Of a stretch of DNA of 64,000 bases, positions 1,637 to 63,865 are shown piece after piece. The translations under genes and the position numbers were made by a program. The stretch is from IMG/VR virus record IMGVR_UViG_3300012075_000001, positions 15,804-79,803 of that record. One strand, 5' to 3'. Below the pieces are notes generated by a model that saw only the letters and a list, made by a program, of their open reading frames with translations, was not told the origin of the DNA and did not search any database. The stretch comes from a virus. Lineage: Duplodnaviria > Heunggongvirae > Uroviricota > Caudoviricetes. How positions within the stretch are numbered: the first letter of the stretch is position 1; each line of letters opens with the position of its first letter.

Positions 1637-4600
1637 ATGAACATTAATCATGCCCTTTCCGTACAATCTGACTTCTCGATTGGTCAATCTATGCTTCAGG
1701 TTGACCATATTATTGAGAAAGCAAAGGAGCTGGGTTATCAATCGGTCGCTGTGGTTGATGACATGAGCGTTCATGCGCTTATTCAATTCACATACAAGGC
1801 TGAGAAAGAAGGTATCAAACCTATAACTGGCGTTCGTGTGCGAGTTTATGACGACCCTACCTATCGTCGACCTTCAAGAACATCACAAGAGATTCCTAAA
1901 GAAAACCCGTGGTTCATTTGTAAGGTTTTCGCGAAAACCGAGGTGGGATTCAAAGGGTTGCTTAGGCTATTAACCGAAGCGAATACTCCAGAGCGATTCT
2001 ATTACAATCCTCGTTCATGCCTTAAAGACCTTCTCGAGCTAGAGGATGTGATTGTTACGACGGGCGATATGTTCGGTATGTTTAGTCATCCGAACTACGA
2101 AAAGATTGCACGTCAATTAAAGTCTACCTTTGGCGATGATTTCTACGCAGAGCTGTGCCCTATAAACACACCATTGTTTGACAAGATGAATAAGCGTGCA
2201 ATTGAGCTTGTCAGCACAATGGGTTACAAACCTCTTGTCACCTACCCTTTTCGCTATTCAGATAACGCAGACGCGAATACGATGGATGTAATGAGTGCGA
2301 TTGCTACAAACACGCAATTAGATGCCTCTTTCCGTAGTCGTCAGTATGTTAAAGAATTTGCATTCGTTGGCCCAAATGTAATTATCGACCGCACAAAGGC
2401 AGCAATCGCACGCGGTGTTAAGTTCAATCGAACCATGTTAGATCCAAAAGCCGTAACAGCAATTTGGTCTACAGGTATCAAAAATTGCGATGAGATTGTT
2501 CAAAAGTGCCAGTACAAGTTTGAAAAACAATCAATTTCTCTTCCAAAATTAGCAGACGATGAGTTCAAGAAGTTATGCGATTTGTGTGTAGCGGGCTGGA
2601 AAAAACGATTTAGCAAACCCGTCTTAGGCTATTTGCCCACTAAACAGCAACTCGATACTGATTATAAAGATCGCTTAGGCTATGAGTTAAGAACGCTCAA
2701 AAATATGGGTTTTGAGTCCTACTTCTTAATGGTTGAGGATCTTGTAACGTGGGCCAAGAACAACGGTGTAATTGTAGGACCCGGTCGTGGTTCGGTTGGT
2801 GGTTCATTGGTTGCTTACCTTATTGGCATCACGGACGTAGACCCTATTCGCTTTGGTTTGATCTTCGAGCGTTTTATTAACCCTGAGCGACTAGATTTGC
2901 CCGATGCTGACCTTGACTTTGCCTCTTCGCGTCGTCACAAAGTTGTTGAATACCTCATTGATAAATACGGGAAAGAATACGTTGCGGGTATTTCCAACTA
3001 CTCAACATTAGCTTCGGCTTCAGCATTACGTGATGTCGGTCGTTTAAGCGGTTTAACACCTCTTGAATTAACGGCGTCTAAATTCGTGCTTAAAGATCAC
3101 GGTCAAACAATGTCGCTTGAAGAGTCAGCTAAAGCGGTTCCTGAATTAGACAAATTTAAAAAAGCGCATCCTGAAATTTGGAAGCATGCTGTTAAATTGG
3201 CGGGAACAATGAAGTCGTTCGGTCAACACGCTGCCGGTATTGTTGTAGCGGGTGAACCAATTGTGAACCGTGCTGTTTTGGAGCGTCGATCTGAAGGCAC
3301 GGTCGTAAACTGGGATAAGCGAGTGGTTGAAGACTGTGGCTTAGTAAAAATGGACTTACTGGGTTTGTCCACCTTAGACACGCTTAATATTGCCCGTGAC
3401 TACATCAAAGAACGTCATGGCATCTATCTAAACTACTTAGAAATTCCTTTAGATGATGCTAAGACCTTGCAAGCGTTTGCAAACGGTAATACTACAGGCG
3501 TTTTCCAGTTCGAATCAGGTGGTATGAAACAGCTGCTAAAAGATATCGCAAAGGGTGGCTCAATGACCTTTGATGATATTTCAGCTGCAACCGCTTTGTA
3601 TCGTCCGGGGCCTATGGATTCAGGACTTTTAGACGATTACGTTGCAACCCGTCAAGGTATGCGTTCAGTCAGCTACGATCATCCAAATATGATTGACGCA
3701 CTCAAAGACACTTTAGGCGTCATTATCTATCAAGAACAGGTAATGAAAGTCTCTGTGGACTTTGCAGGTTTTACAAACGCTGAAGCGGACAAACTCCGTA
3801 AAGCGATGGGTAAAAAGAACGTCGACGAAATGAACAAGATGCGTCAAAAGTTCATTGACGGCGCAGTTGCAAAATCAGGAGTAGAACCAGGAGAGGCTGG
3901 ACGAATTTTTGATAAGATCGAAGCCTTTGCTGGCTATGGTTTCAACAAATCTCACTCAGTTGAGTATTCAATCATTTCTGTATGGTGTGCTTATGTTCGC
4001 GTCCACTATCCAGCTGAATATTTTGCTGCATCTTTATCAATCGTAGATGAGGATAAATTGAAAGGTTTGGTGAAGGATGCTCGCGAATGCGGTATCGAAG
4101 TTTTACCGCCAGACATTAACCTTTCTTCTGACCGTTACACCATCTTAGACAATCACAATATTCTTGCACCGTTTAACGCTGTTAAGGGCGTATCAGAGAC
4201 GACGGCACGCGCTATCGTGAAGCTACGCGAAAAGAACCGCGATATGAAGATTGTTAAGTACAAACGCAATGAAGAGAAAACGCCTGTTTATGGTTATGAC
4301 GACGATGCGCCAATTAAAGGTCGCTTTGATAGCTTGTTCGAGTTCCAAGAAGCAGCAGCACAGCCTAAAACTAAGGTAAACTCAAAAGTCGTTGAGTCTC
4401 TTAATGCGATTGGCGCTTTAGCGAGCGTAGAGCCATCACAATTACCCGCTCGACACATCGACCGACGCAAAGCTCAAATGGACTTATTGCCCGGAATTGT
4501 CATCGATACGGTGAAGGCTGACCGAGTTGCTGATCTAAGCGAAAATCACTTAAAGAGTCGCATCATCATGGTGGCTCAGGAATACAAACAGTGTGATGGC

Positions 4601-5098
4601 TGCGATTTGAAAGGTAAAAAGCATCCAGTCATGCGTTGTGGTAACAAAGTTAAGTTTATGGTCGTCACAGATTGTCCAAATGTTGATGAGGACAAGCAAG
4701 ATAAGCTTATGGTAGGTGATGTCTCAACGTATTTGAAGCAAGCAATCAGAGACGCTGGACTAAATCCAAACGACGGTTACTACACTACGATGGTGAAGGC
4801 GCGTAAGTCAGATAAATTCCTTTCTAACTCACAAATTAATAATTGTAGTAAGTACTTGGAAGAAGAGATTAATCTTGTTAAGCCAAGCATTATTGTTGCG
4901 CTAGGCTCTAGTGTGGCCAAGAAGTTTTTGCCTAGTGTTAAGGGCGGCATTTCAGAGTTAAATGCGACCGCTGTTTATGACACTAACCTTGACGCAACTA
5001 TTGTCTGTGGCATTAGTCCTGCACAACTACCCTTTGACCCTTCAAAACTACCAGACCTTACTTTAGCCTTCGAAAAAGTAGCAGAAGTATTAAGTTGA
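1637..5098 (+). CDS. dnaE: DNA polymerase III alpha subunit (DnaE-like) with C-terminal degenerate family-4 UDG-like domain
   Basis: N-terminal PHP-like region and polymerase core (GPGRGS..G.LVAYL, MDLLGL, YRPGPMD, GYGFNKSH). The C-terminal ~170 aa align to family-4 UDG (KFMVVTDCPNVDEDKQ...VGD vs LMIVGEAPGEEEDKQ...VGRAG; LVKPSIIVALGS vs LVRPRVIVALGA). Confidence 0.85.
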   Translation: MNINHALSVQSDFSIGQSMLQVDHIIEKAKELGYQSVAVVDDMSVHALIQFTYKAEKEGIKPITGVRVRVYDDPTYRRPSRTSQEIPKENPWFICKVFAKTEVGFKGLLRLLTEANTPERFYYNPRSCLKDLLELEDVIVTTGDMFGMFSHPNYEKIARQLKSTFGDDFYAELCPINTPLFDKMNKRAIELVSTMGYKPLVTYPFRYSDNADANTMDVMSAIATNTQLDASFRSRQYVKEFAFVGPNVIIDRTKAAIARGVKFNRTMLDPKAVTAIWSTGIKNCDEIVQKCQYKFEKQSISLPKLADDEFKKLCDLCVAGWKKRFSKPVLGYLPTKQQLDTDYKDRLGYELRTLKNMGFESYFLMVEDLVTWAKNNGVIVGPGRGSVGGSLVAYLIGITDVDPIRFGLIFERFINPERLDLPDADLDFASSRRHKVVEYLIDKYGKEYVAGISNYSTLASASALRDVGRLSGLTPLELTASKFVLKDHGQTMSLEESAKAVPELDKFKKAHPEIWKHAVKLAGTMKSFGQHAAGIVVAGEPIVNRAVLERRSEGTVVNWDKRVVEDCGLVKMDLLGLSTLDTLNIARDYIKERHGIYLNYLEIPLDDAKTLQAFANGNTTGVFQFESGGMKQLLKDIAKGGSMTFDDISAATALYRPGPMDSGLLDDYVATRQGMRSVSYDHPNMIDALKDTLGVIIYQEQVMKVSVDFAGFTNAEADKLRKAMGKKNVDEMNKMRQKFIDGAVAKSGVEPGEAGRIFDKIEAFAGYGFNKSHSVEYSIISVWCAYVRVHYPAEYFAASLSIVDEDKLKGLVKDARECGIEVLPPDINLSSDRYTILDNHNILAPFNAVKGVSETTARAIVKLREKNRDMKIVKYKRNEEKTPVYGYDDDAPIKGRFDSLFEFQEAAAQPKTKVNSKVVESLNAIGALASVEPSQLPARHIDRRKAQMDLLPGIVIDTVKADRVADLSENHLKSRIIMVAQEYKQCDGCDLKGKKHPVMRCGNKVKFMVVTDCPNVDEDKQDKLMVGDVSTYLKQAIRDAGLNPNDGYYTTMVKARKSDKFLSNSQINNCSKYLEEEINLVKPSIIVALGSSVAKKFLPSVKGGISELNATAVYDTNLDATIVCGISPAQLPFDPSKLPDLTLAFEKVAEVLS

Positions 5099-5110
5099 TT
5101 TATTGGAGAA

Positions 5111-5130
5111 GTCAGTCATGACTGATTGAC
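5111..5130 (+). promoter_or_regulatory. variant palindromic motif (GTCAGTCATGACTGATTGAC)
   Basis: Related palindrome between dnaE and the next gene. Confidence 0.35.
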
Positions 5131-5182
5131 TTTTCTTTCAATGATTTTATAGTGACACCTTATTTTTAATGTAGAGGTAATT

Positions 5183-6280
5183 ATGACAACTCAAGTGCAA
5201 GATTTCACAAGCGAAGCAGATTTAGAAGAGCTATTTCAAGAATTAGACATGCTGGGCGAAAGCACTGCAAGCATAGCTGCTCAACCAACGCCAGCTCCCG
5301 CACCAGAGCCACAAGTTCAAGCGGTTCAACAACCTGTAGCTACCCCTACCCCTCAGCCGCAAGTAGTTACTGAAGCACCTGCGCAACCAACCGTCACTAC
5401 TCCACCGCCAGCTGAAGCGCAAACGCCTCATGCAATGTTTGCGAATATGAATGTTGGTGGAATGCTCAAACAAGCTGAAGGAAAAGTTGAGTTAGATCCA
5501 GAAACTCAAACCCCTCCACCACCTCAACAAACAAACCTACAACCACCAGTGCCGGAAAAGGTGGACAATGATCACGATCAAGAAGTTGTTGAGCAAATTT
5601 TTTCTTCGACCACTGCTACTGCATCCACCGCTCCTGCTAATCCTAGCGTCGTACCACCTGTCACAGCTGCTCCTAAAGCTCCTGAACCTACTACTTCGGT
5701 TCCTGCGCCAAAAACACCAACAGTGGGTCAACAAGCCTCAGCGTCGGGATACAGCGGAACGTTAGGCATCACTTTAGAGAATCTGAAGTATAAACCTGAT
5801 GTTCGTGCATTCCAGTTAGAAACAGCTATTTCTGACGCCACGATTGATCAGTGTATGACGAACCAACCTTCCTTAATGTCTTACTGGTCAGCGCAGCAGG
5901 CGTTGGCAGATCATCAACAGGCATTGGCTAAACGCCAGCTTGACCATGTTGAAGCTACGTTATTTCAGGTTTACCGCAAGGCACTTATTAAGAAAGGAGA
6001 GAAACCAACAGAGCGCCTTATTGATGCGTATATTCGCCGTGATGCAATGTGGGAATTGGCTTACGACGTACACGCTACAGCCTCTCAATATGCCAACATT
6101 TTGAAAGGTAATGTGTTTGCGCTTGTTCATCGTCGTGACATGTTAATTCAACGCGGCTCTAGTCTACGCGCAGAGTATCAAGGACAGGTTAGAACGCTTA
6201 GCGCGCAGAACCATGATGATCATTCAATGGCTGCGTTAGATAATGCTAACCGCGCATTAAATCGTACACATACCCAATAA
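5183..6280 (+). CDS. hypothetical protein: acidic N-terminal motif, P/T/Q-rich linker, conserved C-terminal domain
   Basis: Good SD (GAGGTAATT-ATG). The N-terminus is paralogous to that of 35103-36041. Confidence 0.5.
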   Translation: MTTQVQDFTSEADLEELFQELDMLGESTASIAAQPTPAPAPEPQVQAVQQPVATPTPQPQVVTEAPAQPTVTTPPPAEAQTPHAMFANMNVGGMLKQAEGKVELDPETQTPPPPQQTNLQPPVPEKVDNDHDQEVVEQIFSSTTATASTAPANPSVVPPVTAAPKAPEPTTSVPAPKTPTVGQQASASGYSGTLGITLENLKYKPDVRAFQLETAISDATIDQCMTNQPSLMSYWSAQQALADHQQALAKRQLDHVEATLFQVYRKALIKKGEKPTERLIDAYIRRDAMWELAYDVHATASQYANILKGNVFALVHRRDMLIQRGSSLRAEYQGQVRTLSAQNHDDHSMAALDNANRALNRTHTQ

Positions 6281-6295
6281 ATTCTATTGAAAAGA

Positions 6296-6316
6296 TCAGT
6301 CAGTACTGACTATACT
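6296..6316 (+). promoter_or_regulatory. palindrome AGTCAGTACTGACT + TATACT (promoter-like)
   Basis: Perfect 14-nt palindrome abutting a -10-like hexamer. Long inverted repeat (GTCAGAAC...GTTCTGAC) downstream. Confidence 0.5.
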
Positions 6317-6430
6317 ATTACCCGTCAGAACAAGCGAATCGCAGCACGTCGAAATGAAGCGATTCCCGAGTTCTGACAAGCAATCAAGCAACAAAGCAAT
6401 CAACGCAAAGCTACTCAAGGAAATTGTATC

Positions 6431-7321
6431 ATGACTCAATTCGTTTTAGACCCAGCAAAATTAATGGAAACCGCAGCAAATAAGCAAAATGCTATTCGCT
6501 CGCGTGAGAAAACTCTCAAACCTAAAGATGGGTCAAATCGTTTCGTGTTACTTCCGGGGTGGGGTTGGAAACAAGGTAAGCAAGATGTGTGGTTCCATGA
6601 CTTTGGTATGCACTTTATCAAAGATGCAAATGGTGACTTACAGTCTACTTATGTTTGTTTAGATAAAACTTATGGCAAGGACTGCCCGATCTGCGGAGCT
6701 TTAAAACAAGCTGCTAATATGGCTACAACAGAAGCTCAAGTTGAAGCGTTAAAAGAGTGTGGCTCACGTCAGACTTACTTAATGAACGTTTTGGCATTAG
6801 ATTCTGATCGACCTAACGACCCGCAAATCTTAGAAGTTCCTAAAACAGTGTTTAGCGCAATCTTCGATGTATTGGCTAAATGGGGTAGTCGTTTATTTGA
6901 TCCTAACGGTTCGCAAGTGATTGTAATTAACCGCAATGGTTCAGGTATGAATACCAAATACACTGTATTGCCAGATGCAGACACTAAACAAATCCAACCA
7001 CAGGTATATGAAAAACTTAACAACCTAGATGAATATGTACAGCAAGAAAATGATGAACGTTTACAACGCTCATTAGGTCATGTTCAGCAAGTTGTAGGTT
7101 TATTACCTCCATCTCAAAACAGCGATACGCCACGTACACCAGCAGCCGCTTTAGGTGTAGGCACTACCGCTCCGCAACAAACTTTCAGTCAAACTGCTGA
7201 AGAAATTTCGTATACCGAAGTTACTCAGCCTGCTCAACCTCAAGCAGCTCAACAGCCGCCGATTAACCTTAACACCGACCTCGACGCTTTATTAGACGGC
7301 GTTGATGACATTGTGGTTTAA
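6431..7321 (+). CDS. single-stranded DNA-binding protein, T4 gp32-like (Zn-binding)
   Basis: RFVLLPGW...H...C(X9)CPIC matches the gp32 RFLPS...H..C..C..C zinc subdomain pattern. Acidic C-terminal tail DLDALLDGVDDIVV. Confidence 0.55.
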   Translation: MTQFVLDPAKLMETAANKQNAIRSREKTLKPKDGSNRFVLLPGWGWKQGKQDVWFHDFGMHFIKDANGDLQSTYVCLDKTYGKDCPICGALKQAANMATTEAQVEALKECGSRQTYLMNVLALDSDRPNDPQILEVPKTVFSAIFDVLAKWGSRLFDPNGSQVIVINRNGSGMNTKYTVLPDADTKQIQPQVYEKLNNLDEYVQQENDERLQRSLGHVQQVVGLLPPSQNSDTPRTPAAALGVGTTAPQQTFSQTAEEISYTEVTQPAQPQAAQQPPINLNTDLDALLDGVDDIVV

Positions 7322-21753: not shown

Positions 21754-21783
21754 AAGAAAAGGCGCATTAAGCGCCTTTTTTAT
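21753..21783. terminator. bidirectional rho-independent terminator (nrdB / doc convergence)
   Basis: AAAAGGCGC-ATTAA-GCGCCTTTTTT. Confidence 0.75.
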
Positions 21784-22205
21784 AACTGATGAACATATTG
21801 ATAGAGGTAGTCGCCTAATGCCTCAGCAATTTCCTTGTGGCCACCGTCTTCGCATGATTGTGCGCTTTCAACAATGTCAACCATCATGTCATCCAGATCT
21901 TGATTAGGTTCAATGTAAACGCCTTGCATACGAAGGTAAGTCAACATTACGGTCAATCCTGTTCTTTTATTGCCATCTTTAAATGCGTGTTGCGTGGCAA
22001 TTGAAATACCATACCATGCCGCAATCACATAAATGTCATTCAAGCCTTCGTAGTAAACGTATTGTTGAACTCTTGCCAAAGCGCTTTCAAGTAGACCGTC
22101 ATTGGTTGGGCCTCTCAAGCCACCCTGTACGCTATCTAGAATTTCGTTATGAATCGCCTTTACAAGCGCTGCGTTAATTGTAGGTGCCGGATCAAAATCA
22201 TCCAT
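21780..22205 (-). CDS. doc: Doc (death-on-curing) / Fic-family toxin
   Basis: HAFKDGNKRTG matches the Doc/Fic motif H.F.(D/N)GNKR. Confidence 0.7.
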   Translation of the reverse strand: MDDFDPAPTINAALVKAIHNEILDSVQGGLRGPTNDGLLESALARVQQYVYYEGLNDIYVIAAWYGISIATQHAFKDGNKRTGLTVMLTYLRMQGVYIEPNQDLDDMMVDIVESAQSCEDGGHKEIAEALGDYLYQYVHQL

Positions 22206-22797: not shown

Positions 22798-23658
22798 ATG
22801 CAAGTCAAAATTATTGCGGATTCTTGTAGTCATGAAGGGAAACGTATTACGACCTTTCAACTGCGTTACCCGCGTTTTATTCACAGTGAAGTGATGACCC
22901 ACCGCGTATTTAGTCGCAATGCATCAAGCTCGCGTGCCATCCCTGTAATCAAAATGATCAATCAGGTTGAAGCAAATCCGGCGATGCCTGTTCATTGGGG
23001 CAAAAACCAAGCTGGTATGCAGGCTTGGGAAGAAGTGGATGAAGAAACAAAGGAACTTGCTCGTGAAGCTTGGCTAATCGCAGCTAAAAATGCGGTTGAA
23101 ACAGCGCGATTCATGGCTGTTGATCTCAATCTGCACAAACAAGTTGTTAATCGCATCTTAGAGCCATTCCAATTCATTGAAGTGGTTTTGACGGCGACCA
23201 GTTATGACAACTTCTTTGAGCTTCGCCATCACGAAGATGCCGACCCAACTATTTTTGCCTTAACTGCATTGATGAAGGCAGAAATTCAAAAATCAACACC
23301 AGTTCTTTTAGGGCCTAACGAATGGCACCTTCCATACATCACAGATAAAGAACGTGAACTTTATCCGATCGAAATTCTGTTGCAAGTATCGGCGGCTCGT
23401 TGTTGTCGCGTCTCCTACTTACTACATGACGGCCAAACGCCAAACATCGATAAAGATATTCGCCTTTGTGAAAAGTTAGTTGGTTCTGAACCACTTCACG
23501 CCTCTCCTTTTGAACATCAAGCAACACCGGATATTCGAAATCCGTGGTTAGTCAAATTGTTCTGCGGCGAATGGCAAAACAAACATCTGCATGGGAATTT
23601 CGATGGCTTTATACAGCATCGGAAATTAATCGAACTTCAATTTAAGGAAGCAGCATGA
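22798..23658 (+). CDS. thyX: flavin-dependent thymidylate synthase
   Basis: THRVFSRNASSSRAIP matches the ThyX RHR(X7)S motif. Confidence 0.8.
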   Translation: MQVKIIADSCSHEGKRITTFQLRYPRFIHSEVMTHRVFSRNASSSRAIPVIKMINQVEANPAMPVHWGKNQAGMQAWEEVDEETKELAREAWLIAAKNAVETARFMAVDLNLHKQVVNRILEPFQFIEVVLTATSYDNFFELRHHEDADPTIFALTALMKAEIQKSTPVLLGPNEWHLPYITDKERELYPIEILLQVSAARCCRVSYLLHDGQTPNIDKDIRLCEKLVGSEPLHASPFEHQATPDIRNPWLVKLFCGEWQNKHLHGNFDGFIQHRKLIELQFKEAA

Positions 23659-32512: not shown

Positions 32513-32779
32513 ATGAGCAATATAGCAATTTCTGAAACCGAACTGCTCAAACAAACTGAAGAGTGGTTCGAGGACACATTAAAACGTTTAGGCGAAATCG
32601 TAAAAGATGAAGATGAGAAACAAATCATCCTCAACACGGGCGAAGAAAAAATCCTTTTGGATAATCCAAAAGATATTCGCATTGCTCGAAATACTCTTCG
32701 AGCTATTTTAAATACGCTCCAGTACACATTCCCTTATACGACTAAAAGCGTTATTGCACAGGAAGTAGTTGCAGAATGA
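32513..32779 (+). CDS. hypothetical protein
   Basis: ORF only. Confidence 0.4.
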   Translation: MSNIAISETELLKQTEEWFEDTLKRLGEIVKDEDEKQIILNTGEEKILLDNPKDIRIARNTLRAILNTLQYTFPYTTKSVIAQEVVAE

Positions 32780-33309
32780 TTATTCGTGGTTTTGATACAG
32801 AGACTACAGGTTTAGAACAAGCTGAAGGTCATCGCATCATTGAAGTTGCGATTTTGTCTTATGACTCCAATACCCGTCAGCTCGTTGATAAATATGTGCA
32901 GCGCATAGATCCAGAGCGCTCAATCGACCCTAAAGCACAAGCGGTACATGGCATTGATTATAGCCAGCTTATCGGTTGCCCTAAATGGGAACAGGTTGCG
33001 CCCCAAGTTCATCATTTGCTAAGTACTAGCGATTTAGTAATTGCGCATAACATTGCCTTCGATATGCCCTTTACACAGGCTGAACTTCAGCGCGTTGGAT
33101 TACGTTTACCTCCCGTACAGCAGCTTTGTACGATGGATAAAGGTCGTTGGGCTACCTTTGATGGAAAATCACCGAAATTGGGTGAATTATGCTTTGCGCT
33201 TGATGTGGATTATGACCCTAAAGCTGCCCATGCTGCGGACTATGACGTTGATGTCATGATGCAATGTTTCTTTGCAGGCGTTGATCGCGGTTTTTATAGC
33301 ATCGCTTAA
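32776..33309 (+). CDS. DnaQ-like 3'-5' proofreading exonuclease (epsilon-like)
   Basis: Exo I FDTETTG, Exo II VIAHNIAFDMPF, Exo III HAADYDVDVM. Confidence 0.8.
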   Translation: MIIRGFDTETTGLEQAEGHRIIEVAILSYDSNTRQLVDKYVQRIDPERSIDPKAQAVHGIDYSQLIGCPKWEQVAPQVHHLLSTSDLVIAHNIAFDMPFTQAELQRVGLRLPPVQQLCTMDKGRWATFDGKSPKLGELCFALDVDYDPKAAHAADYDVDVMMQCFFAGVDRGFYSIA

Positions 33310-37119: not shown

Positions 37120-38322
37120 ATGACACAATATCTTCGCCACAACACTTCATACACTTTTGCACCAGACGTAAGCGGTGTTGCTCTTGATAAATTGCCTGCT
37201 GGTTTCTACCGCGTTTGTTGGAATGACATTGCTGGTTTTTACCTTGAAATAGCAGAGCCTTTGACTCTTATTGCTAAAGCGTATGGTAATGCATACCAAC
37301 ATCAAGACCGCATCATGAATACATTCAATGAGCGCGTTGGTTTGCCTACAACAGTGCTTTTAGAAGGTTACAAAGGCACAGGTAAAACATTGCTTGCGAA
37401 AAAGCTATGTGTTGACTTCGTAAATGCTGGCGGCATTTGTCTTCTTCAGGGCAAAGCTTATACAGGGGACGCGTACAAAGCATTCCTTCAAAAGATTGAA
37501 CAGCAAAAAATTGTTTTCATTGATGAGTTTGACAAAGTTTATAACGAGTCAGACAAAGTAAACGATATGCTTACGTTACTTGATGGTATGTACCCAATGC
37601 ATACCTTGTTTATCCTCACTATGAATGCTGATTCACGCGGTTCTCGCTATGAATACTTCAGCAACCGTCCGGGACGCGTTTATTACAACATACACTTTGG
37701 CAGCATTAGCGAATCAACTATTCGTGAATATGCAGCTGACAATCTGATAAACAAATCACGAATTGATGAAATCATCGAATACGTTGGTCGTTTCTCAATG
37801 TTCAACATGGACATGCTTACCGTGTTGGTCAAGGAAGTTAATAATAACGAAAACATTTCCGTGCGTGAGCTAGGTGTTTTCTTAAATATTAAGCCAACCA
37901 TTTCATACGATGACGTTCGTCTTGATATTACAGCGACTTATAAAGGCTACGATGTTTCAAATTCACTTAATCGTGATTACTTGTCCGCTGATTATTTTGA
38001 ACGAATGGTCACAACAAATGATTTTCGCTTCCTTCTTCAAGTGTATCCAAATACCACTCGCAAAACTGATGATGGCGAAGTCAAACTTAATCACTACGAC
38101 GAGCCAGTTCGCGTTATCGGCTACATGGATGAAGAAAGCGGTAAGTTTGTAGAGTTACCTAAATACGAACGTCGTGTGACGCCATGCGAAGTTGAATGCT
38201 CATTCGATCCTAAAGAACGCGTCATGACGATTCATGACAAAGAAAATGACCTCATCATTAAAGCTTGTGCAAAGCCTCGCTTCAGCTACTTAAATCGCGA
38301 TTCTCGTACTGTAGTTTTCTAA
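37120..38322 (+). CDS. AAA+ ATPase
   Basis: Walker A GYKGTGKT, Walker B IVFIDEFDK. Confidence 0.6.
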   Translation: MTQYLRHNTSYTFAPDVSGVALDKLPAGFYRVCWNDIAGFYLEIAEPLTLIAKAYGNAYQHQDRIMNTFNERVGLPTTVLLEGYKGTGKTLLAKKLCVDFVNAGGICLLQGKAYTGDAYKAFLQKIEQQKIVFIDEFDKVYNESDKVNDMLTLLDGMYPMHTLFILTMNADSRGSRYEYFSNRPGRVYYNIHFGSISESTIREYAADNLINKSRIDEIIEYVGRFSMFNMDMLTVLVKEVNNNENISVRELGVFLNIKPTISYDDVRLDITATYKGYDVSNSLNRDYLSADYFERMVTTNDFRFLLQVYPNTTRKTDDGEVKLNHYDEPVRVIGYMDEESGKFVELPKYERRVTPCEVECSFDPKERVMTIHDKENDLIIKACAKPRFSYLNRDSRTVVF

Positions 38323-38391: not shown

Positions 38392-39501
38392 ATGACTGAT
38401 AATACCGAAAATACAATTGAACCAATCGCATTAAAACAAGCATCCGTCACTACCAGCGTTCGTGATCTTGGCGAATTTACTGTCAAATCTAACGCAATTC
38501 GTTTTTCTGACCCTTGTTACAACAATGACACATGGTGCAAAGGCTCAATGCCTGCGCTTAATGGTCAATGGCAAGCAAAATTAGGCTTCTTTCGTGATTC
38601 CTATGATGAGAAATCGCTAAAAGATGGCATTGCAATTCAAACTAAAGCGCACGAGATTGTAAAAGCGCTTACCTTTTCAGTGAAATCTGAATTAGAGATA
38701 TTAAAAAATACATTAAACGAATTTGTAAAAGAGCATAAGCCTAAACAAATTCCCTATCGCCAATTAAACCTGACCGACCTTACAAAGCCGATTGTTGACG
38801 ATATTGTCAAATTCTCACATGACAGCATTGAACCGCACAGTTGGCGAACCCCGTCTGAATCTGCTCTTTCCACCCTTCTTGACATTCTTGATCTTATTTT
38901 GGGTGTGTCGCATAGAATTCCTGATCGTTGGAGCTACCGCATCGCAATGGCAGAGTTTCAAGCGAACAAAGCTGAGAACAAAACAGACGAACAGCGCTAT
39001 GAAGATGCCAAGACTGTTTTGCTAGAAACACTAAATAGCGGTATCGAAAAAAGTCAAAAGGCTTTTGATGAAGGTTGTCCACGCCGTACCCAATTTTTGC
39101 ACATAAAGCATGAGTCTGTAGTGGATTTCACCCCATTAGACCAAGAAGTGTGGCTTGAAAATTCTGCGTTTGATGTAGGCGTTGATTCTGGTCAAGCTGG
39201 CTTCTTTGACGAGAATTGGTACGCAGAATATGGCAACGAGAAAGATGACAACAATCGCAGCGCCAAGTGGGAAGAGATTTACAGCAAGTTATGCGATCTA
39301 ACATTAGGTCAATACAGAATTGATCCAGAAACAGGTGAGCGCGCTGAATACAACTATGCAGGCACTTTCGAGTTTGGCTGCAACGGTCAGACAGCACACG
39401 GTGATGGCTCAGCCCCTCTCTACTACCGTACAGATGAAGATGGAAATGTAATCGAAGCGGTTTACCACTACGACATCGATTGGGAAGAGGAGGATGAATA
39501 A
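38392..39501 (+). CDS. hypothetical protein
   Basis: ORF only. Confidence 0.4.
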   Translation: MTDNTENTIEPIALKQASVTTSVRDLGEFTVKSNAIRFSDPCYNNDTWCKGSMPALNGQWQAKLGFFRDSYDEKSLKDGIAIQTKAHEIVKALTFSVKSELEILKNTLNEFVKEHKPKQIPYRQLNLTDLTKPIVDDIVKFSHDSIEPHSWRTPSESALSTLLDILDLILGVSHRIPDRWSYRIAMAEFQANKAENKTDEQRYEDAKTVLLETLNSGIEKSQKAFDEGCPRRTQFLHIKHESVVDFTPLDQEVWLENSAFDVGVDSGQAGFFDENWYAEYGNEKDDNNRSAKWEEIYSKLCDLTLGQYRIDPETGERAEYNYAGTFEFGCNGQTAHGDGSAPLYYRTDEDGNVIEAVYHYDIDWEEEDE

Positions 39502-45437: not shown

Positions 45438-45980
45438 ATGACTAACGAAACTAATGATCAAGTGACTATAGAGCAATTTTTAGCGAAGTTTTCAAACCCT
45501 GATAACAACAAACGTTTTCGCTTAGAAGGCTTCAGTTTTACGCATCAACACGGTTTTAACCTTTACTTTGACGAATACGACGACTTTAAAGACGAGTTAG
45601 GCGATGTAGAAATCGAGTTCTGGCAGCTGGAAGACACTTGGGCCAATGAAGAGATTAAAGTTTCATCTTTCAGCACTCTTGAAACGATAGTTGAGTTTTT
45701 AGTAAGCCTTAATCTTGATGAAGTTAAAGAAGTTGGCGTATACGCAGCTTTAGTCGAAGGTAACTATGCTGATTGGTCAAATGTAAAAGAGTGGCACGAA
45801 GAGCATTATGTTTGTGACTATGAAAACGACGATGACTTTGGACGCTACTTAATTGATGAATTATCCGCTTTAGATATACCTGAAGACATACAAGGCTATT
45901 TTGATTACGAACGCTACGGGCGCGATGCTCTATTAAGCGATTACTGCAAAGCTGAAGGAAAAGTTTACCGAAACTGCTAA
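45438..45980 (+). CDS. acidic hypothetical protein
   Basis: Partial copy of the conserved leader upstream. Terminator downstream. Confidence 0.45.
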   Translation: MTNETNDQVTIEQFLAKFSNPDNNKRFRLEGFSFTHQHGFNLYFDEYDDFKDELGDVEIEFWQLEDTWANEEIKVSSFSTLETIVEFLVSLNLDEVKEVGVYAALVEGNYADWSNVKEWHEEHYVCDYENDDDFGRYLIDELSALDIPEDIQGYFDYERYGRDALLSDYCKAEGKVYRNC

Positions 45981-53534: not shown

Positions 53535-54173
53535 ATGACACACGAACTTATATGGGTTGACCCTGCTCAATTGCAGCCTAACCCGTGGAACTCAAACATC
53601 GTGTCGCCAGAAAATGAAGCTAAGTTAAAGGCATCCATCGAACGTCGCGGAATGTTCAAGCCTATTGTCGTGCGTCAGCTCGACGATGGTTCATTCCAAA
53701 TTATCGGTGGGGAACATCGCTCTCTAGTCGCAAAACAAATGAAAATGGACAAAGTGCCCGCTTTCAATCTTGGAAAAATCAGCGACAAAGAAGCTAAAGA
53801 AATTGGACTGCTCGATAACGGGCGGTACGGTTCCGATGATGCACTCAAATTGGCTGAAATCTTTGCGGACATTGGAACGCCCGAAGACCTTGCCAACTTC
53901 ATGCCTTTCACTTCTTCAGACATCGACACGATTTTCACTAATTCAACTATAGCCCTAGATGCTCTAGCTGACCTCGATTTGCCAGACGAAAACGTTGAAT
54001 TGCCTTCAGGAAAAGCAGTTCAAACACATCAAATCATGCGATTCAAAGTCCCTGTAGAGCAAGTGGACAAAGTAGTTGAACGCATTCAGGCCGTTATTAA
54101 GTCACAAGGATATGACGATGACGACGCCATGATTAACGCCGGGGACGCTTTAGCCCACATTGTACTCAAGTAA
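53535..54173 (+). CDS. ParB/Srx-like nuclease-domain protein
   Basis: N-terminal ParB-like block (PIVVRQLDDGSFQIIGGEHR). Confidence 0.55.
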   Translation: MTHELIWVDPAQLQPNPWNSNIVSPENEAKLKASIERRGMFKPIVVRQLDDGSFQIIGGEHRSLVAKQMKMDKVPAFNLGKISDKEAKEIGLLDNGRYGSDDALKLAEIFADIGTPEDLANFMPFTSSDIDTIFTNSTIALDALADLDLPDENVELPSGKAVQTHQIMRFKVPVEQVDKVVERIQAVIKSQGYDDDDAMINAGDALAHIVLK

Positions 54174-58898: not shown

Positions 58899-60143
58899 AT
58901 GGGAATCAAAGAAAAACTCAGCCTACATCCTAAACAGATGGAGGTTTACCAGTCTAAAGCGCGTTTCCGCGTGGTTGTTGCTGGGCGCCGTTGGGGTAAG
59001 AGTCAACTTTCTAAGATTTTGATGATTTCCAAAGCGCGCGTTCCAAAGCAAAAGGTATGGTACGTTGCACCAACGTACAAAATGGCTAAGCAGATCATGT
59101 GGAATGATTTGCTTGACGCTATACCTAAATCATGGATCGCCAAAGTCAACGAGTCAAACCTTTCAATTCGATTGGTAAATAAATCACGAATTGAACTGAA
59201 AGGTGCGGACAAGGCCGATTCCCTTCGTGGTGTCGGTATCAACTTTCTCGTTCTCGATGAGTTTCAGGACATGGACGAAGACACTTGGACTAAAGTGTTG
59301 CGTCCTACGCTGGCAGATACAGGTGGTCACGCCATCTTCATCGGTACGCCTAAAGCCTACAACTGTCTTTACACCGTTTATAAATTAGGGCAAGACCCTA
59401 AGAAAATTAAAACGGGCCAATGGCAGTCGTGGCAGTTTCCAACGATTACATCCCCATTCATCCCATTATCTGAATTAGCTGCCGCTAAAGCAGATATGGA
59501 TGAAAAATCCTTCAAACAGGAGTTTTTAGCGTCATTCGAAACCATGAGTGGTCGTGTCTACTATCCATTTGACCGAAATCTGCATGTGGGGAATTACGAA
59601 ATCAATCCTCACTTGCCAATTTGGGTAGGTATGGACTTCAACATTGACCCAATGAGCGCCGTTTTGTTTCAACCTCAAGAGAACGGCGAACTTTGGGCAG
59701 TTGATGAAGTTGTTCTGTTTGGCTCTAACACCGAAGAAATGTGTCAGGCGCTGGATGAAAAACTATGGAGACACAGATCGCAAATCGTTGTTTACCCCGA
59801 CCCAGCAGGCGGACAAAGGCAGCATGCGCGAGGCGAGACAGACTTGGACATCCTAAGAGAAATGGGTTTCAAGCACATCAAGTACCGCAAAAAGCATCCA
59901 ATGATTGCAGATAGGGTCAACTCGGTGAATCGATTACTAATGGCGGCAGATGGCTCAATTCGATTGAAAATCGATGAGAAGTGCAAACATCTTATCAACT
60001 CCTTCGAACAGACCATTTACAAGCCGGGTTCGCGCGATGTCGACAAGGCAGCTGGCGTTGAACATAGTGCCGATGCAGCAGGGTACGCAATCGAACTTGA
60101 GTTTCCATTACGCAAAATTGAGTTTGGCGGTATTTCAATTTAA
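58899..60143 (+). CDS. terminase large subunit candidate
   Basis: Walker A AGRRWGKS, Walker B LVLDEFQD, C-terminal acidic nuclease-like region. Confidence 0.5.
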   Translation: MGIKEKLSLHPKQMEVYQSKARFRVVVAGRRWGKSQLSKILMISKARVPKQKVWYVAPTYKMAKQIMWNDLLDAIPKSWIAKVNESNLSIRLVNKSRIELKGADKADSLRGVGINFLVLDEFQDMDEDTWTKVLRPTLADTGGHAIFIGTPKAYNCLYTVYKLGQDPKKIKTGQWQSWQFPTITSPFIPLSELAAAKADMDEKSFKQEFLASFETMSGRVYYPFDRNLHVGNYEINPHLPIWVGMDFNIDPMSAVLFQPQENGELWAVDEVVLFGSNTEEMCQALDEKLWRHRSQIVVYPDPAGGQRQHARGETDLDILREMGFKHIKYRKKHPMIADRVNSVNRLLMAADGSIRLKIDEKCKHLINSFEQTIYKPGSRDVDKAAGVEHSADAAGYAIELEFPLRKIEFGGISI

Positions 60144-60150
60144 GTTACAC

Positions 60151-60172
60151 ATCAGTCATTACTGACTGATAA
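60151..60172 (+). promoter_or_regulatory. palindromic motif variant (AGTCATTACTGACT)
   Basis: Between terminase and portal candidates, 15 nt before SD AGAGGAAAGG. Confidence 0.4.
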
Positions 60173-60182
60173 AGAGGAAAGG

Positions 60183-61886
60183 ATGAATCTTAAACACGGA
60201 GAAACGGCAGTAATTGATTTGCAGGCTCAGGAAGCCAAGCAAAGCACAGCTTCCGTTGCTGGTGACCAAGCGCGTTTTCGTACTTTGATCGAGAGACGGC
60301 ATCCTAAGTACAAAGCCTTATTGTGTCACTGGAACTTCATGGAGGAGACATATAACGGCGGTCGTAAGTGGTTTGATTCGAACATTTTCCGTTACATCAA
60401 AGAGGGTGACAAAGAGTTTAACAATCGCATTGCGCGAGCTTATCGCTTCAATCATACGCGTGAAGTTGTTGACTTGATCAACAAGTACCTGTTCAAACAG
60501 GCTATCACTCGCAATGAAGTCGATGCGCCTGCGTGTGTATTGGATTTCTGGAAGTCTGCAACCAAAGGCAACTTAACGATCAATGATTTTGTTCGTCAAG
60601 TAAGTAAAAAAACTTCTTTGTTTGGCCGAGTGGCCATTGTTGTTGATAAGACAGACGCCGAGAAAGAGATTGTGACACGTCAAGATGAGATTGAAGCCAA
60701 TCTTCATACTTACGGTTACATCGTCGAACCTCAGCGAATCCTAGACTACTCATACGATGAAAACGGTGAGTTAAATTGGATCTTAATTCATGAAATCGGG
60801 CGAGATGATGAAGACCCTTTCTTATCCTCTGGAAAACAAGTCAATCGATACAGACTGTGGACCAAGAACAATTGGCTACTGTTAGAGGTAAAAGAAGGCA
60901 AAGGCAAAAAGAATTACGAAGTTACTGAAGTTCAACGTGGTGAACACGCACTCGGAGAGGTTCCGGTAATCTTAGCGGACAACATTATTGGTGATGATCA
61001 ATATTCTGCGCCAGCACTTATTGATGACATCGCTTATCTTGACCGCGCAACTGCCAATTACCTTTCGAACTTGGATGCCATCATTCAAGACCAAACCTTC
61101 AGCCAATTGGCGATGCCAGCGCAAAACCTGATGCCTGGTGAAGAGCAATACGACAAGCTTTTGGAAATGGGCACCAAGCGGGTGTTCCTATATGACGGTG
61201 AGAATGGCACAAGCCCGTTCTACTTGTCACCAGACGTAAAGCAAGCCGATCTATTGATGACCACAATCAACAAGATCATTGGAGAGATTTACCACACTGT
61301 CGGTTTAGCAGGAGAGCGCACAAAACAGGACAATGCGGTAGGTATCGACAATAGCTCAGGCGTAGCAAAAGCCTATGACTTTGAGCGCGTAAATGCATTG
61401 CTTACAGCGAAAGCTGATTCACTAGAAACCATCGAAAATAAGATCGTTCGACTCGTTGCCAAATGGAATGGCGTCAAAATCGACGATAAAGATTCATACG
61501 TTTCTTACCCGGATAACTTTGATACACGCGGCTTGTATGACGAATTTGATATCTCTGCACGTCTCATGTTGATTGAAGCACCAGAAACGGTAAGACGTAC
61601 CCAAATGGAAGCTGTGATCAACAAACTATTCCCTCAGTTAGCCAAAGAGCTTCGCAAGAAGATGATTGATGAATTGAAGGACTGGCCAATTGACCCGCTT
61701 GAACTAGCGGCTCAAATCACAGACGGAAACAGCACAGGTCAACTCAAGAATCGCACAAGCATTAAAAAGAATGCTGACGACGCAAAAGACACGACCGAAG
61801 CTAAAGCAAAAAATCCTCAAGGAAACACAGCAGCCAAAGCGACCAAAAACAACCGCCAAGGCCAAGTGACCAAACAAACAAAGTAA
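60183..61886 (+). CDS. portal protein candidate
   Basis: Size and position after the terminase. Confidence 0.4.
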   Translation: MNLKHGETAVIDLQAQEAKQSTASVAGDQARFRTLIERRHPKYKALLCHWNFMEETYNGGRKWFDSNIFRYIKEGDKEFNNRIARAYRFNHTREVVDLINKYLFKQAITRNEVDAPACVLDFWKSATKGNLTINDFVRQVSKKTSLFGRVAIVVDKTDAEKEIVTRQDEIEANLHTYGYIVEPQRILDYSYDENGELNWILIHEIGRDDEDPFLSSGKQVNRYRLWTKNNWLLLEVKEGKGKKNYEVTEVQRGEHALGEVPVILADNIIGDDQYSAPALIDDIAYLDRATANYLSNLDAIIQDQTFSQLAMPAQNLMPGEEQYDKLLEMGTKRVFLYDGENGTSPFYLSPDVKQADLLMTTINKIIGEIYHTVGLAGERTKQDNAVGIDNSSGVAKAYDFERVNALLTAKADSLETIENKIVRLVAKWNGVKIDDKDSYVSYPDNFDTRGLYDEFDISARLMLIEAPETVRRTQMEAVINKLFPQLAKELRKKMIDELKDWPIDPLELAAQITDGNSTGQLKNRTSIKKNADDAKDTTEAKAKNPQGNTAAKATKNNRQGQVTKQTK

Positions 61887-61935
61887 CAGTCAAGGGAACG
61901 ACTGTAGCTAAGAGACTAGCACAAGGAAGATCGAT

Positions 61936-62790
61936 ATGCCTTTATGGATGCAACTTTTAATGAATGGCGGCTTACTTCAACAAGAAGCCGATGGTGAAGG
62001 TTCTGATTTAGGAGCTGGCGCGGGCGCAGAAGGTGGCGCAGCACAAGACCCTAAAGGCGAGCCAACTAAAGAAACTGACGAGCCAAAAAAAGAAGATGGC
62101 GACAACAAGCCAACTGATAAAGAAGCTGAATTACTTAAAGAAGTAATGAAGAAAAAAGCTGAAGCACAACGGGCGAAGCAGGAGCTTGAAGACCTAAAGG
62201 CTAAATATATCGACATCGATCCTGAAGCTGCTCGCAAGGCACTTGAAGAGAAGAAAGAACAGGAAACGAAACAGCTTGAAGCGAAGGGTGATTTTGAGCG
62301 CTTAAAAGCTCGCATGGCCGAAGAGCATGCGAAAGAAGTGACCGCTTTGAAAACACGCATTGCCGAGCTGGAAAGTGCCGACTCTAGTAAATCTCAAACG
62401 ATCAACGACCTAACGGTCGGAACACAGTTCACTCAGTCGCAATACATCAAAGAAGACCTACTTTATACGCCAACTAAGTTGCGTGCGTTATATGGCAGTC
62501 ACTTTGAAATTGAAGATGGCAAAGTTGTTGGTTACGACAAACCTCGCGGTTCGGCTGAGCGTACCAAAATTGTAGACAGCCAAGGTAACGCCGTTGGTTT
62601 TGATAAAGCGCTTGAAAAGATCATTTCGCTAGATCCAGATGCGAATTACATGATCAAAGCTAAGTCTAAACCCGGAGCTGGTTCACAGCCAAACCCTAAA
62701 CAGGGTGCCCAAAAGCCAAATGAGAAAGTAACTTCTCAAGCCAAAATCTCAAATGGTTTAACACAGTTGTTTGCTGGCCAAGGTCAGTAA
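61936..62790 (+). CDS. scaffold protein candidate
   Basis: E/K-rich coiled coil between portal and capsid candidates. Confidence 0.35.
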   Translation: MPLWMQLLMNGGLLQQEADGEGSDLGAGAGAEGGAAQDPKGEPTKETDEPKKEDGDNKPTDKEAELLKEVMKKKAEAQRAKQELEDLKAKYIDIDPEAARKALEEKKEQETKQLEAKGDFERLKARMAEEHAKEVTALKTRIAELESADSSKSQTINDLTVGTQFTQSQYIKEDLLYTPTKLRALYGSHFEIEDGKVVGYDKPRGSAERTKIVDSQGNAVGFDKALEKIISLDPDANYMIKAKSKPGAGSQPNPKQGAQKPNEKVTSQAKISNGLTQLFAGQGQ

Positions 62791-62841
62791 GTCCAAATAG
62801 CACGCTCGACCCCTTATAGTTCGGGCGTTTCAGTAAAAATA

Positions 62842-62862
62842 ATCAGTCATTACTGATTGATC
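62842..62862 (+). promoter_or_regulatory. palindromic motif variant (AGTCATTACTGATT)
   Basis: Between scaffold and capsid candidates. Confidence 0.4.
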
Positions 62863-62962
62863 TTTTGGATCCATTGTAGTAGGATTCTCGATCAATCGGT
62901 GGCTAGAGAGAGTTAGTAAATCCGACAATCTCAATGAGCAAATTAACTAATGGAGTAGTTAA

Positions 62963-63865
62963 ATGCCACTATTACGCGAAGAAGCTGCGAAGCTTAGTAA
63001 TAACGAACTCGTCTCAGGCGTGGTCGAAGAAATCATCGACAAGGATGAAATGTTTGCGTTTCTTCCATTTATCGGCGTAAAAGGGAAAGCTTACGTCTAT
63101 AACCGTGAAAAAACGTTAGCTGACGCTGATTTCTTGGATCCAAACGAAGAAATCAAAGAATCTGCATCAACGTTCGACGAAGTTACTGCCAAGTTACGTA
63201 TTTTGGCTGGTGACGTCGACATCGACAAATTCCTTGATTCAACAATGGATGACACTAATAACCAAATGGCGATCCAAGTGACGCAAAAGGCGAAAGGTGT
63301 TGGCCGTAAATTCCACAAAACTTTAGCAACTGGTGATGCCTCTGTTAACCCGAAAGAGTTTGACGGTATCGCAAAACTTGTAACTGAAGAGCAAACTATT
63401 GTCGCTGGTGACAATGGTAGTGGTATCACTTTAGCGTTGTTAGACGAATTACTTGATAAGGTTCCTCATGGTGCCGACTGTTTAGTGATGCGTCGTGGTA
63501 CGATTCGTGCGTACCGTAACTTGCTCCGTGTGACATCGGGCACTGACGCTGTAATGCAGATGATCGAAAACTTTGGTCGTCCAATGTTGACGCACAACGG
63601 TGTGCCAATTGTGATGAACGAATTTTTGCCAGCTGACGAAGTGGTGGGCACGAACCAAAAAACGTGTTCTATTTACGCAATCCGTGCAAACGAAGTAGAT
63701 GGCTTACATGGTATCTACGGCGGTGGCCCTGCTGGTATCGTTGTTGAAAACATCGGTACGGTACAAAATAAAGACGCAACACGCATCCGCTTAAAGTGGT
63801 ATGTTGGTTTAGTCTTGAAATCAACTAAGTCTTTGGCGCGTTTAAAAGGTATTACTAATACCTAA
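62963..63865 (+). CDS. major capsid protein candidate
   Basis: Gene order. Strong terminator follows. Confidence 0.35.
   Translation: MPLLREEAAKLSNNELVSGVVEEIIDKDEMFAFLPFIGVKGKAYVYNREKTLADADFLDPNEEIKESASTFDEVTAKLRILAGDVDIDKFLDSTMDDTNNQMAIQVTQKAKGVGRKFHKTLATGDASVNPKEFDGIAKLVTEEQTIVAGDNGSGITLALLDELLDKVPHGADCLVMRRGTIRAYRNLLRVTSGTDAVMQMIENFGRPMLTHNGVPIVMNEFLPADEVVGTNQKTCSIYAIRANEVDGLHGIYGGGPAGIVVENIGTVQNKDATRIRLKWYVGLVLKSTKSLARLKGITNT

Follow-up and report, generated by a model that had tools for sequence, protein, structure and literature searches.

Why should a viral replicative polymerase end in a uracil-DNA glycosylase (UDG) fold whose active site is degenerate, and what might such a domain do there? 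The question is raised by a 64,000-nucleotide (nt) stretch of a tailed-phage genome (Caudoviricetes; IMG/VR virus record IMGVR_UViG_3300012075_000001, positions 15,804 to 79,803), referred to throughout as the window, which carries on its plus strand, at 1637..5098, the gene for a C-family, DnaE-type DNA polymerase of 1153 amino acids (aa). The last ~180 aa of this polymerase (aa 975-1153; 4559..5095, plus strand) have the fold and ancestry of a family-4 UDG, as judged from sequence models and predicted structure, while alignment indicates that the domain lacks every testable catalytic feature of that family. We give a probability of roughly 0.55 to the reading that the domain is a non-excising structural module of the replicase, contacting DNA or serving a kindred purpose, and that it descended from an active glycosylase.

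The C-terminal domain of the polymerase

Pfam model PF03167 (UDG) matched aa 1004-1136 with 43.9 bits (E 3e-11) in the full protein and 48.4 bits in the isolated domain, against a gathering cutoff of 24.3. Two family-4 models scored below their own cutoffs (TIGR00758: 61-66 bits, E 1e-16 to 4e-18, trusted cutoff 125.3; NF040953: 63-67 bits, cutoff 250), as did the UdgX model TIGR03914, whose 50.6-55.4 bits (cutoff 189.95) were also lower than the family-4 scores. Among PDB sequences, phmmer recovered T. maritima TM0511 (5.8e-11), T. thermophilus UDGa (3.1e-10) and S. tokodaii UDG (6.3e-10), with UdgX at about 1e-4. An AlphaFold2 model of the domain built from a 14-sequence input reached a pLDDT of 87.3 and a pTM of 0.88, and Foldseek placed the family-4 UDGs 1ui1, 4zby and 1l9g at the top of the PDB (E 3e-13, TM 0.80, root-mean-square deviation 2.2-2.4 Å, ~186 columns), followed by UdgX (E ~1e-12) and then, much more weakly, by family 5 and TDG. 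With a sequence score above the Pfam cutoff and a superimposable predicted fold, the domain is a member of the UDG superfamily. It resembles the characterized family-4 UDGa enzymes (T. thermophilus 1ui0/1ui1, T. maritima 1l9g/1vk2, S. tokodaii 4zbx/4zby) in fold and in the order of elements, at 20-24% identity; those enzymes are standalone proteins, whereas the window's domain is fused to a polymerase.

An initial annotation, made from the sequence alone, had proposed that this 1153-aa DnaE ends in a family-4-UDG-like domain and had named structure prediction of the C-terminal region as a check; that prediction returned a UDG fold and not another, in line with the Pfam score and the PDB matches. 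The span proposed then, 4590-5098 (aa 985-1153), lies inside the domain, but by both the models and the fold the domain begins a little before it, near aa 965-975 (nt ~4559). The peptides cited in support were all located in the protein: KFMVVTDCPNVDEDKQDKLMVGD at aa 1006-1028, YYTTMVKARKSD at aa 1048-1059, LVKPSIIVALGS at aa 1080-1091 and GISPAQL at aa 1125-1131.

The rest of the protein is a C-family polymerase, with the domain order PHP, Pol3 core, fingers, (HhH)2, linker and UDG-like domain. The PHP domain occupies aa 8-173 (1658..2155, plus strand; PF02811, 66.7 bits), and the Pol3 catalytic core and fingers lie together at 2570..3874 on the same strand (aa 312-576, PF07733, 256.9 bits; aa 579-746, PF17657, 185.2 bits). 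They are followed by an (HhH)2, beta-binding-type domain at aa 819-931 (4091..4429, plus strand), which PF14579 matched with 55.7 bits in two stretches, the (HhH)2 motif proper lying at aa 819-870; MAFFT pairs LNAIGALASV of the window protein with E. coli LIMSGAFDRL in this region. The DnaE superfamily model TIGR00594 scored 724 bits against a cutoff of 434 (NCBIfam), and the catalytic Asp triad is intact (D423, D425 and D573, corresponding to E. coli D401, D403 and D555) and invariant in 28 sequences. By domain set, model score and Asp triad, this is a DnaE-type C-family polymerase.

The cellular DnaE1 model NF004226 scored only 746.7 bits against its cutoff of 1002, and its alignment stops at aa 868, which is position 850 of the 1146 in the model. 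Because the alignment reaches only this far, the OB fold and the tau-binding C-terminal domain (CTD) of cellular DnaE are absent, and the UDG fold stands in their place. This arrangement, a PF03167 domain replacing OB and CTD after PHP-Pol3-(HhH)2, is that of the DnaE-UDG proteins of phage-plasmids (the 'DnaEX' of Timinskas 2014; PHROG 405), and the phrog_405 match covers aa 3-1152 of the window protein.

Active site, metal site and selection

Residues were mapped by HMMER alignment to 1ui0, which shares its numbering with a mutational study of T. thermophilus UDGa, and motif coordinates were confirmed by translation. Motif A, G-E-[AG]-P-G in the family, reads TDCPN in the window protein (aa 1011-1015; 4667..4681, plus strand), where only the acid, as Asp, and the Pro are retained (G40 to T1011, E41 to D1012, G42 to C1013, P43 to P1014, G44 to N1015). 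Motif B, x-x-H-P-[AS] in the family, reads GISPA (5009..5023, plus strand), with the catalytic His replaced by Ser (H155 to S1127). Elsewhere in the pocket E47 is kept as E1018, while F54 is replaced by M1025, N80 by T1051 and N89 by D1059. The only His in aa 975-1153 of the window DnaE is H996; there is none in aa 997-1153. Several other family-4 features survive, namely the CxxC pair, the fourth Cys and the equivalents of Y77, T79, K83 and P156. Motifs A and B, F54, N80, N89 and one iron-sulphur (Fe-S) ligand are substituted. The initial annotation had read the TDCPN and GISPAQL substitutions correctly, as translation and alignment both show, and its view of the domain as probably non-catalytic is strengthened by the replacement of the equivalents of G40, G42, G44, F54, N80, N89 and H155.

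In T. thermophilus UDGa, E41, G42, E47, F54, N80 and H155 form the uracil pocket and N89 positions water (PMC5387724). Single substitutions there lower k2/Km by ~2,500-fold (H155S), ~900-fold (E41Q), ~90-fold (G42D), more than 40-fold (N80A) and ~17-fold (F54A), and E41D reduces activity 'substantially' (PMC5387724). The window's replacement of H155 by Ser is the same change as the ~2,500-fold-impaired H155S. From this mutagenesis we infer that uracil excision has been lost in the window domain. Motif A nonetheless appears to have been remodelled and not erased, given the acid and the Pro that it keeps.

The Fe-S ligands tell a related story. In the alignment to 1ui0, C986 and C989 of a CDGC motif (4592..4603, plus strand) correspond to ligands C13 and C16, and C1070 (4844-4846, plus strand) to the fourth ligand, C100; the third ligand, C84, is replaced by A1055 (4799-4801, plus strand). 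The window domain therefore has three of the four cysteines of a canonical [4Fe-4S] site. These three behave as an all-or-none set within the clade, occurring together in 49/107 members, and the third-ligand position is almost never Cys. This pattern suggests a putative three-Cys metal site, with a further fourth ligand, in about half of the clade including the window protein; a metal site thus probably persists in the window protein, although it would be dispensable clade-wide. We considered C1013 as a relocated fourth ligand, but it is not obligate, since 21 of the 49 three-Cys members do without it. It is nevertheless commoner among them (28/49 versus 13/58; Fisher p = 3e-4, uncorrected for phylogeny).

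The degenerate active site is a property of the clade at large, its pattern being common to ~110 members. A profile search of 1.84 billion representatives returned 107 clusters at E <= 1e-30. Among 133 full-domain matches, 46 were proteins of at least 1000 aa with the domain at the extreme C-terminus, 36 were proteins of 350-470 aa with the domain likewise C-terminal, and one was a long protein with the domain N-terminal. Across 112 clade sequences motif A follows [TFSL]-D-[CAGS]-P-[NST], with the Asp present in 104. The positions that would form the pocket vary among small residues (C, A, G or S at 1013; L, M, G, A or T at 1025; S, A, T or G at 1051; N in 71, S in 23 and T in 12 sequences at 1127), and the position of D1059 varies as well, in contrast to a near-invariant scaffold comprising Y1048, T1050, K1054, K1057, E1077, P1083, G1090 and P1128. 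Because of this contrast, the clade alignment argues for a fold that has been retained while the specific pocket has not; the chief reservation about this reading is the Asp of motif A, which hardly varies.

Selection on the domain is strong. In a Nei-Gojobori comparison of the window gene with its 83%-identical orthologue on A. baumannii plasmid NZ_CP115646.1, in which synonymous divergence is near saturation and the ratios are approximate, the ratio of nonsynonymous to synonymous substitution rates (dN/dS) was 0.029 both for the UDG-like domain and for the Pol3 core; the core of the UDG-like domain taken alone gave 0.021, the fingers 0.015 and the linker 0.105. The UDG-like domain is therefore under purifying selection as strong as that on the polymerase core. 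A pseudogene or decaying relic is ruled out by the dN/dS of ~0.03 together with conservation in more than 100 clusters.

A covalent DNA binder of the UdgX type was also considered. The window domain matches the family-4-like Fe-S fold of UdgX (M. smegmatis; 6ajo, 6io9) but has none of its GEQPG motif, motif-B His and R-loop His nucleophile; the lower scores against the UdgX model, together with the absence of any His after aa 996, rule this candidate out.

Ancestry, precedents and the role of the domain

Metagenomic relatives suggest how this state may have arisen. In three intein-containing C-family polymerases (P0152, P0143 and P0136), the C-terminal UDG domain scores 73-82 bits and retains all four Cys. 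P0152 is near-canonical, with motif A AEAPG, L at the Phe position, YISN, KCRPPNN and an HPA motif B. P0143 keeps GEAPG and the Phe, with N80 replaced by T, C84 kept and the His replaced by N, while P0136 combines a window-like motif A (TDSPT) with I at the Phe position, N80 replaced by S, C84 kept and the His retained in IHPA. The DnaE-UDG fusion probably started as an active enzyme and then lost its chemistry in the window's lineage, a history suggested by these near-canonical fusions because they mirror a split between active and inactive forms among PolA polymerases.

That split provides the closest precedents. In SP15-like PolA the UDG is active and reads template dU ahead of the fork (Missoury et al. 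2025; bioRxiv 10.1101/2025.03.26.645540), and the passage of that preprint citing Czernecki et al. 2023 describes the UDG of N4-like PolA as having lost its catalytic residues. On that account, N4-like A-family polymerases resemble the window DnaE in having a UDG fold fused to a phage replicase with the catalytic residues gone, and each has an active or near-canonical sister group: SPO1/SP15-like for PolA, P0152-like for DnaE. The N4-like fusion is an independent event and is N-terminal on an A-family polymerase; the window's is C-terminal on a C-family one. The SP15-/SPO1-like PolA-UDGs (phiLo 9qhs, YerA41) and poxvirus D4/E4 likewise integrate a UDG fold into a viral replicase. In the solved PolA-UDG and poxvirus cases the UDG sits at the template entry and touches DNA, and D4 adds processivity; these domains are catalytically active, unlike the window's, which is without the catalytic set, and D4 is a family-1 protein and a separate subunit. 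The phiLo polymerase 9qhs was among the Foldseek matches, and many PolA proteins appeared in the viral fold search. As a further difference from the N4-like fusion, phrog_17 matched the window's UDG-like domain only weakly (E 2e-6).

The architecture itself is already on record, with near-identical proteins in RefSeq, and finding it is not a discovery. In the account of Kazlauskas and Venclovas (2011), the C-terminus of viral C-family polymerases received no assignment, and vaccinia D4 served as the model for a proposal that the UDG-like domains on SPO1 and T5 PolA are intrinsic processivity factors (PMC3201878). Timinskas et al. (2014) then recorded a DnaE variant with OB and CTD replaced by UDG, and did not address its catalytic state or function (PMC3919608). 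Our literature search for an explicit DnaE-UDG fusion in phages, in which subscription journals lay mostly outside the scope and earlier mentions may exist, found a single one-sentence mention, in the same paper (PMC3919608). The 'DnaEX' proteins (PHP-Pol3-(HhH)2-UDG) of Yersinia pestis pMT1-type and Salmonella pHCM2/SSU5-type elements share the window protein's domain order and its replacement of OB and CTD, and the SSU5, Klebsiella, E. coli and Yersinia versions align with it over their full length at 37-40% identity, although the window element falls in the Acinetobacter AB group and not in the enterobacterial pMT1/SSU5 group.

The linker just upstream of the UDG-like domain contains a conserved motif, RRKAQMDLLPG (aa 943-953; 4463..4495, plus strand), whose core QMDLL (aa 947-951; nt 4475-4489) is a candidate internal beta-clamp-binding site. 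It resembles QADMF (920-924) of E. coli alpha and occupies the equivalent linker after (HhH)2, although the distance from a homologous helix to the motif is 15 residues in the window DnaE and 28 in E. coli. The clade consensus between the (HhH)2 and UDG-like domains is R-x-x-[DA]-Q-x-[ED]-L-[ML]-P-G; in 112 sequences, with ~10 gaps, R943 is conserved in 99, Q947 in 92, L950 in 77, M or L at 951 in 85 and P952 in 90. An in-register alignment of QMDLL with QADMF by MAFFT failed, and we claim positional similarity alone. No sliding clamp, clamp loader or standalone UDG was detected among the ~40 window open reading frames (ORFs) scanned, a subset of those in the window, and none is annotated in 100 kb of a complete relative whose gene table is incomplete and whose final 4.6 kb lie outside that span. 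Two window ORFs were considered for these functions and rejected: a 369-aa ORF at 38392..39501, examined as a beta clamp for its length, matched DUF4241 alone and has no DnaN domains, and the adjoining AAA+ ATPase at 37120..38322 is too weakly similar to phrog_168 (E 5.5e-6) to be called a clamp loader. The window polymerase probably uses the host beta clamp through its Q-x-[DE]-L-[LM] motif.

These observations can be assembled into a proposed history. The ancestral domain would have been an active glycosylase scanning the template ahead of the polymerase; its chemistry would then have been lost, so that uracil was no longer excised, and the fold would have survived as a structural component of the replicase, most likely touching DNA or the template strand and so holding the polymerase on DNA, while the polymerase rides the host beta clamp by way of the motif just upstream. 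Contact with DNA or the template strand that stabilizes the polymerase is our preferred form of the structural role, and it carries a substantial though tentative share of the weight given to that role. Several considerations weigh on the other side. The inactivity is deduced from mutagenesis of another enzyme, and the nearly invariant Asp of motif A (D1012), together with the retained E1018, could serve a changed chemistry. The domain is near neutral and not notably basic (23 K+R versus 22 D+E, isoelectric point 7.7), which is weak support at best for a non-specific grip on DNA. The fold model covers the isolated domain, and the placement of that domain relative to the template path is conjectural. 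As to the clamp, MAFFT loses register past (HhH)2 and does not pair QMDLL with QADMF, leaving motif resemblance and linker position as the basis for that reading, and the apparent absence of an encoded clamp depends on incomplete annotation tables and on the scan of ~40 window ORFs.

The place of the domain, which in cellular DnaE belongs to the OB fold and tau-binding CTD, would also suit a docking module that replaces the CTD and tethers the polymerase to the element's DnaB-like helicase, primase, single-stranded DNA-binding protein (SSB) or DnaQ-like exonuclease. The element encodes a helicase, primases, an SSB and an exonuclease of its own with no tau or clamp loader annotated, the near-neutral charge of the domain fits such a role, and in a sister lineage a separate 421-aa (HhH)2-linker-UDG-like piece must reassociate with a 785-aa polymerase core. 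We nevertheless regard docking as rather unlikely, and less likely than DNA contact: no partner, co-variation or complex model speaks for it, each characterized UDG-fold domain on a viral polymerase contacts DNA, and the conserved K1054, K1057, K1060, K1102 and R1095 are compatible with DNA contact here. Alternatively, the remodelled pocket may still belong to a DNA glycosylase with another substrate or mechanism, for instance with Asp1012 acting as acid or base on a template lesion or modified base ahead of the polymerase. The near-invariance of D1012 (104/112), the retention of E1018 and the strong selection on the domain would fit this, as would the activity of UDG-superfamily members with very different motifs, the template scanning of active PolA-fused UDGs and the existence of near-canonical DnaE-UDG fusions. 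Yet motif A has lost its flanking Gly pair, and the Phe for stacking, the two Asn residues for base reading and water positioning and the leaving-group His have gone as well. Each such loss alone cripples T. thermophilus UDGa, the pocket positions vary among small residues as a specific active site would not, and H996 is the only His in the domain. The window also encodes ThyX and dUTPase, and no base-modification genes were found among the ORFs scanned. An altered glycosylase therefore seems improbable to us.

The least likely reading, which we consider very improbable, is the one that the initial annotation had offered as an example: a non-cleaving sensor of uracil or a modified base, which by analogy with read-ahead recognition would stall or modulate the polymerase. 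Retention of the fold and of the overall pocket-forming loops is in keeping with such a sensor, and UdgX is an example of a family-4-like fold with very tight binding to uracil-DNA. The proposal found no support here, however: the three side chains that read uracil (the equivalents of N80, F54 and H155) are all substituted and their positions vary in the clade, the UdgX-type His nucleophile is missing, and the UdgX model scores below the family-4 model. Moreover, the window encodes a ThyX-type thymidylate synthase (22798-23658) and a dUTPase (23951-24412; PF00692, 105 bits), along with a ribonucleotide reductase (RNR), and dU input should therefore be low. The element makes dTTP and removes dUTP, and nothing points to uracil-containing or hypermodified DNA for which a base sensor would be needed.

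To the preferred structural role we would add, more tentatively, a wider proposal: that the C-family DnaE is a third kind of replicase to have taken up the UDG fold, besides the A-family phage polymerases and the B-family poxvirus holoenzyme, and that the fold has there passed from a template-scanning glycosylase to a non-excising module with a new, selected function. This function might be a grip on DNA or template substituting for the OB and tau-binding domains, with a three-Cys metal site and a host beta clamp borrowed through QxDL[LM].

The element, its neighbouring genes and the spread of the fusion

The element is a diverged relative of the Acinetobacter AB-group phage-plasmids and not a classical lytic or T4-like phage. 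Its first 25 kb (1-25000) are 83% nt-identical, over 95% of their length, to ~107-kb circular A. baumannii plasmids, with 146 Acinetobacter plasmid records matching. The 'AB' phage-plasmids were named by Pfeifer et al. (2021), with Rhizobium phage RHEph10 as a distant relative (PMC7969092). Also encoded in the window are ParB (53535..54173), a Doc/Fic toxin (21780..22205, minus strand), ArdA (45438..45980) and, within 58899..63865, terminase, portal and capsid proteins. The whole DnaE is 93.5% identical to A. baumannii plasmid DnaE WP_001024529.1, and the UDG-like domain ~95% identical at the protein level to the A. baumannii plasmid versions. A megablast of the dnaE gene against the phage collection gave no match; relatives came from protein searches and the plasmid collection.

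Replication and nucleotide genes in the window include those for a T4-type SSB, FEN/RNase H, a UvsX-like recombinase, SbcCD, RNR, primase, a DnaQ-like exonuclease and a DEAD-box helicase, and PGAP annotates RepB, ParA, a DnaB-like helicase, two toprim proteins, ligase and a thioredoxin-family protein in the complete relative. The DnaQ-like 3'-5' exonuclease (32776..33309, plus strand; PF00929, 83.7 bits; phrog_192 'DNA polymerase exonuclease subunit', E 5e-54), which the initial annotation had already placed at 32776, is the probable proofreading partner of the window DnaE. That annotation had also called a DnaE-type replicase with such an exonuclease an unusual choice for a phage that otherwise carries T4-like SSB, UvsX, gp46/47, UvsW and RNase H analogues, a view that does not hold for a phage-plasmid relative whose polymerase architecture is typical of such elements and was noted in 2014.

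Two neighbours of dnaE deserve mention. Directly downstream, an ORF at 5183-6280 (365 aa) matches phrog_9245 (E 1e-179) with no Pfam match; its N-terminal half is of low complexity and rich in Pro, Gln, Thr and Ala, while its C-terminal half is conserved, and a hypothetical gene occupies the matching position downstream of dnaE in A. baumannii plasmids and Nickievirus. It may encode a replisome accessory protein. Two genes upstream of dnaE, an ORF at 158-841 weakly resembles a sigma factor (phrog_351, E 1e-6) and matches nothing in Pfam, and its counterpart in the sister plasmid carries the annotation of a sigma-70 family sigma factor. This sigma-like ORF, by its position, suggests that the element controls transcription of its own replication module.

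The DnaE-UDG architecture is the usual one in a large group of phage-plasmids and ~110-kb siphophages. RHEph10-like Rhizobium phages, Nickievirus (Pseudomonas), Stenotrophomonas phages and SSU5-like phage-plasmids all encode more distant full-length homologues, at 37-43% identity; the survey for the same fusion that the initial annotation had suggested thus found it in these and in the Acinetobacter phage-plasmids. Gene order around dnaE is common to the window and Nickievirus. A tblastn search with the UDG-like domain alone returned 1,074 plasmid records (Klebsiella 308, Escherichia 218, Acinetobacter 154, Enterobacter 90, Yersinia 63 and Salmonella 49) and 71 phage records, the weaker phage matches falling in A-family polymerases.

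The DnaE-UDG gene is a hotspot of selfish insertions. In the sister A. baumannii phage-plasmid NZ_CP143347.1, the region 2354-6597, equivalent to 1637-5098 of the window, has its polymerase gene split by a NUMOD4 homing-endonuclease gene into a 785-aa dnaE and a 421-aa protein of (HhH)2, linker and UDG-like domain. Proteins of this split type, 350-470 aa long, make up 36/133 of the metagenomic matches. Inteins lie within the Pol3 core or fingers of P0143, P0136 and P0090 (1528-1840 aa), some with LAGLIDADG or Hint homing-endonuclease domains, and in some Klebsiella phage matches the dnaE gene is broken by ~780 nt, giving two tblastn pieces. Within the (HhH)2/beta-binding-type domain of the window protein, a lineage-specific insertion, KNRDMKIVKYKRNEEKTPVYGYDDDAPIKG (aa ~872-895; nt ~4250-4320), interrupts the domain relative to E. 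coli and most clade members, and includes a 2-aa indel between the window DnaE and its A. baumannii plasmid orthologue.

PGAP names the 421-aa split piece a 'uracil-DNA glycosylase family protein', while the same piece is PHROG 4335, of 'unknown function'. The PGAP name probably overstates its function, and over-annotation is likely in split lineages.

The broader question that this locus serves is why UDG folds recur on viral replicases and what role an inactivated one plays. The clade offers a clean system in which to ask it: a series from near-canonical to degenerate UDG domains on one polymerase scaffold, together with a naturally split form whose (HhH)2-UDG-like piece is made as a protein of its own. 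The architecture is also very widespread among phage-plasmids from clinical Enterobacteriaceae and Acinetobacter, including some phage-plasmids that spread resistance genes. If the domain is indeed a module with a new function, then more than 1,000 sequenced clinical plasmids, among them those of Klebsiella, E. coli, Acinetobacter, Yersinia (pMT1) and Salmonella, would replicate by means of an uncharacterized pseudo-glycosylase domain.

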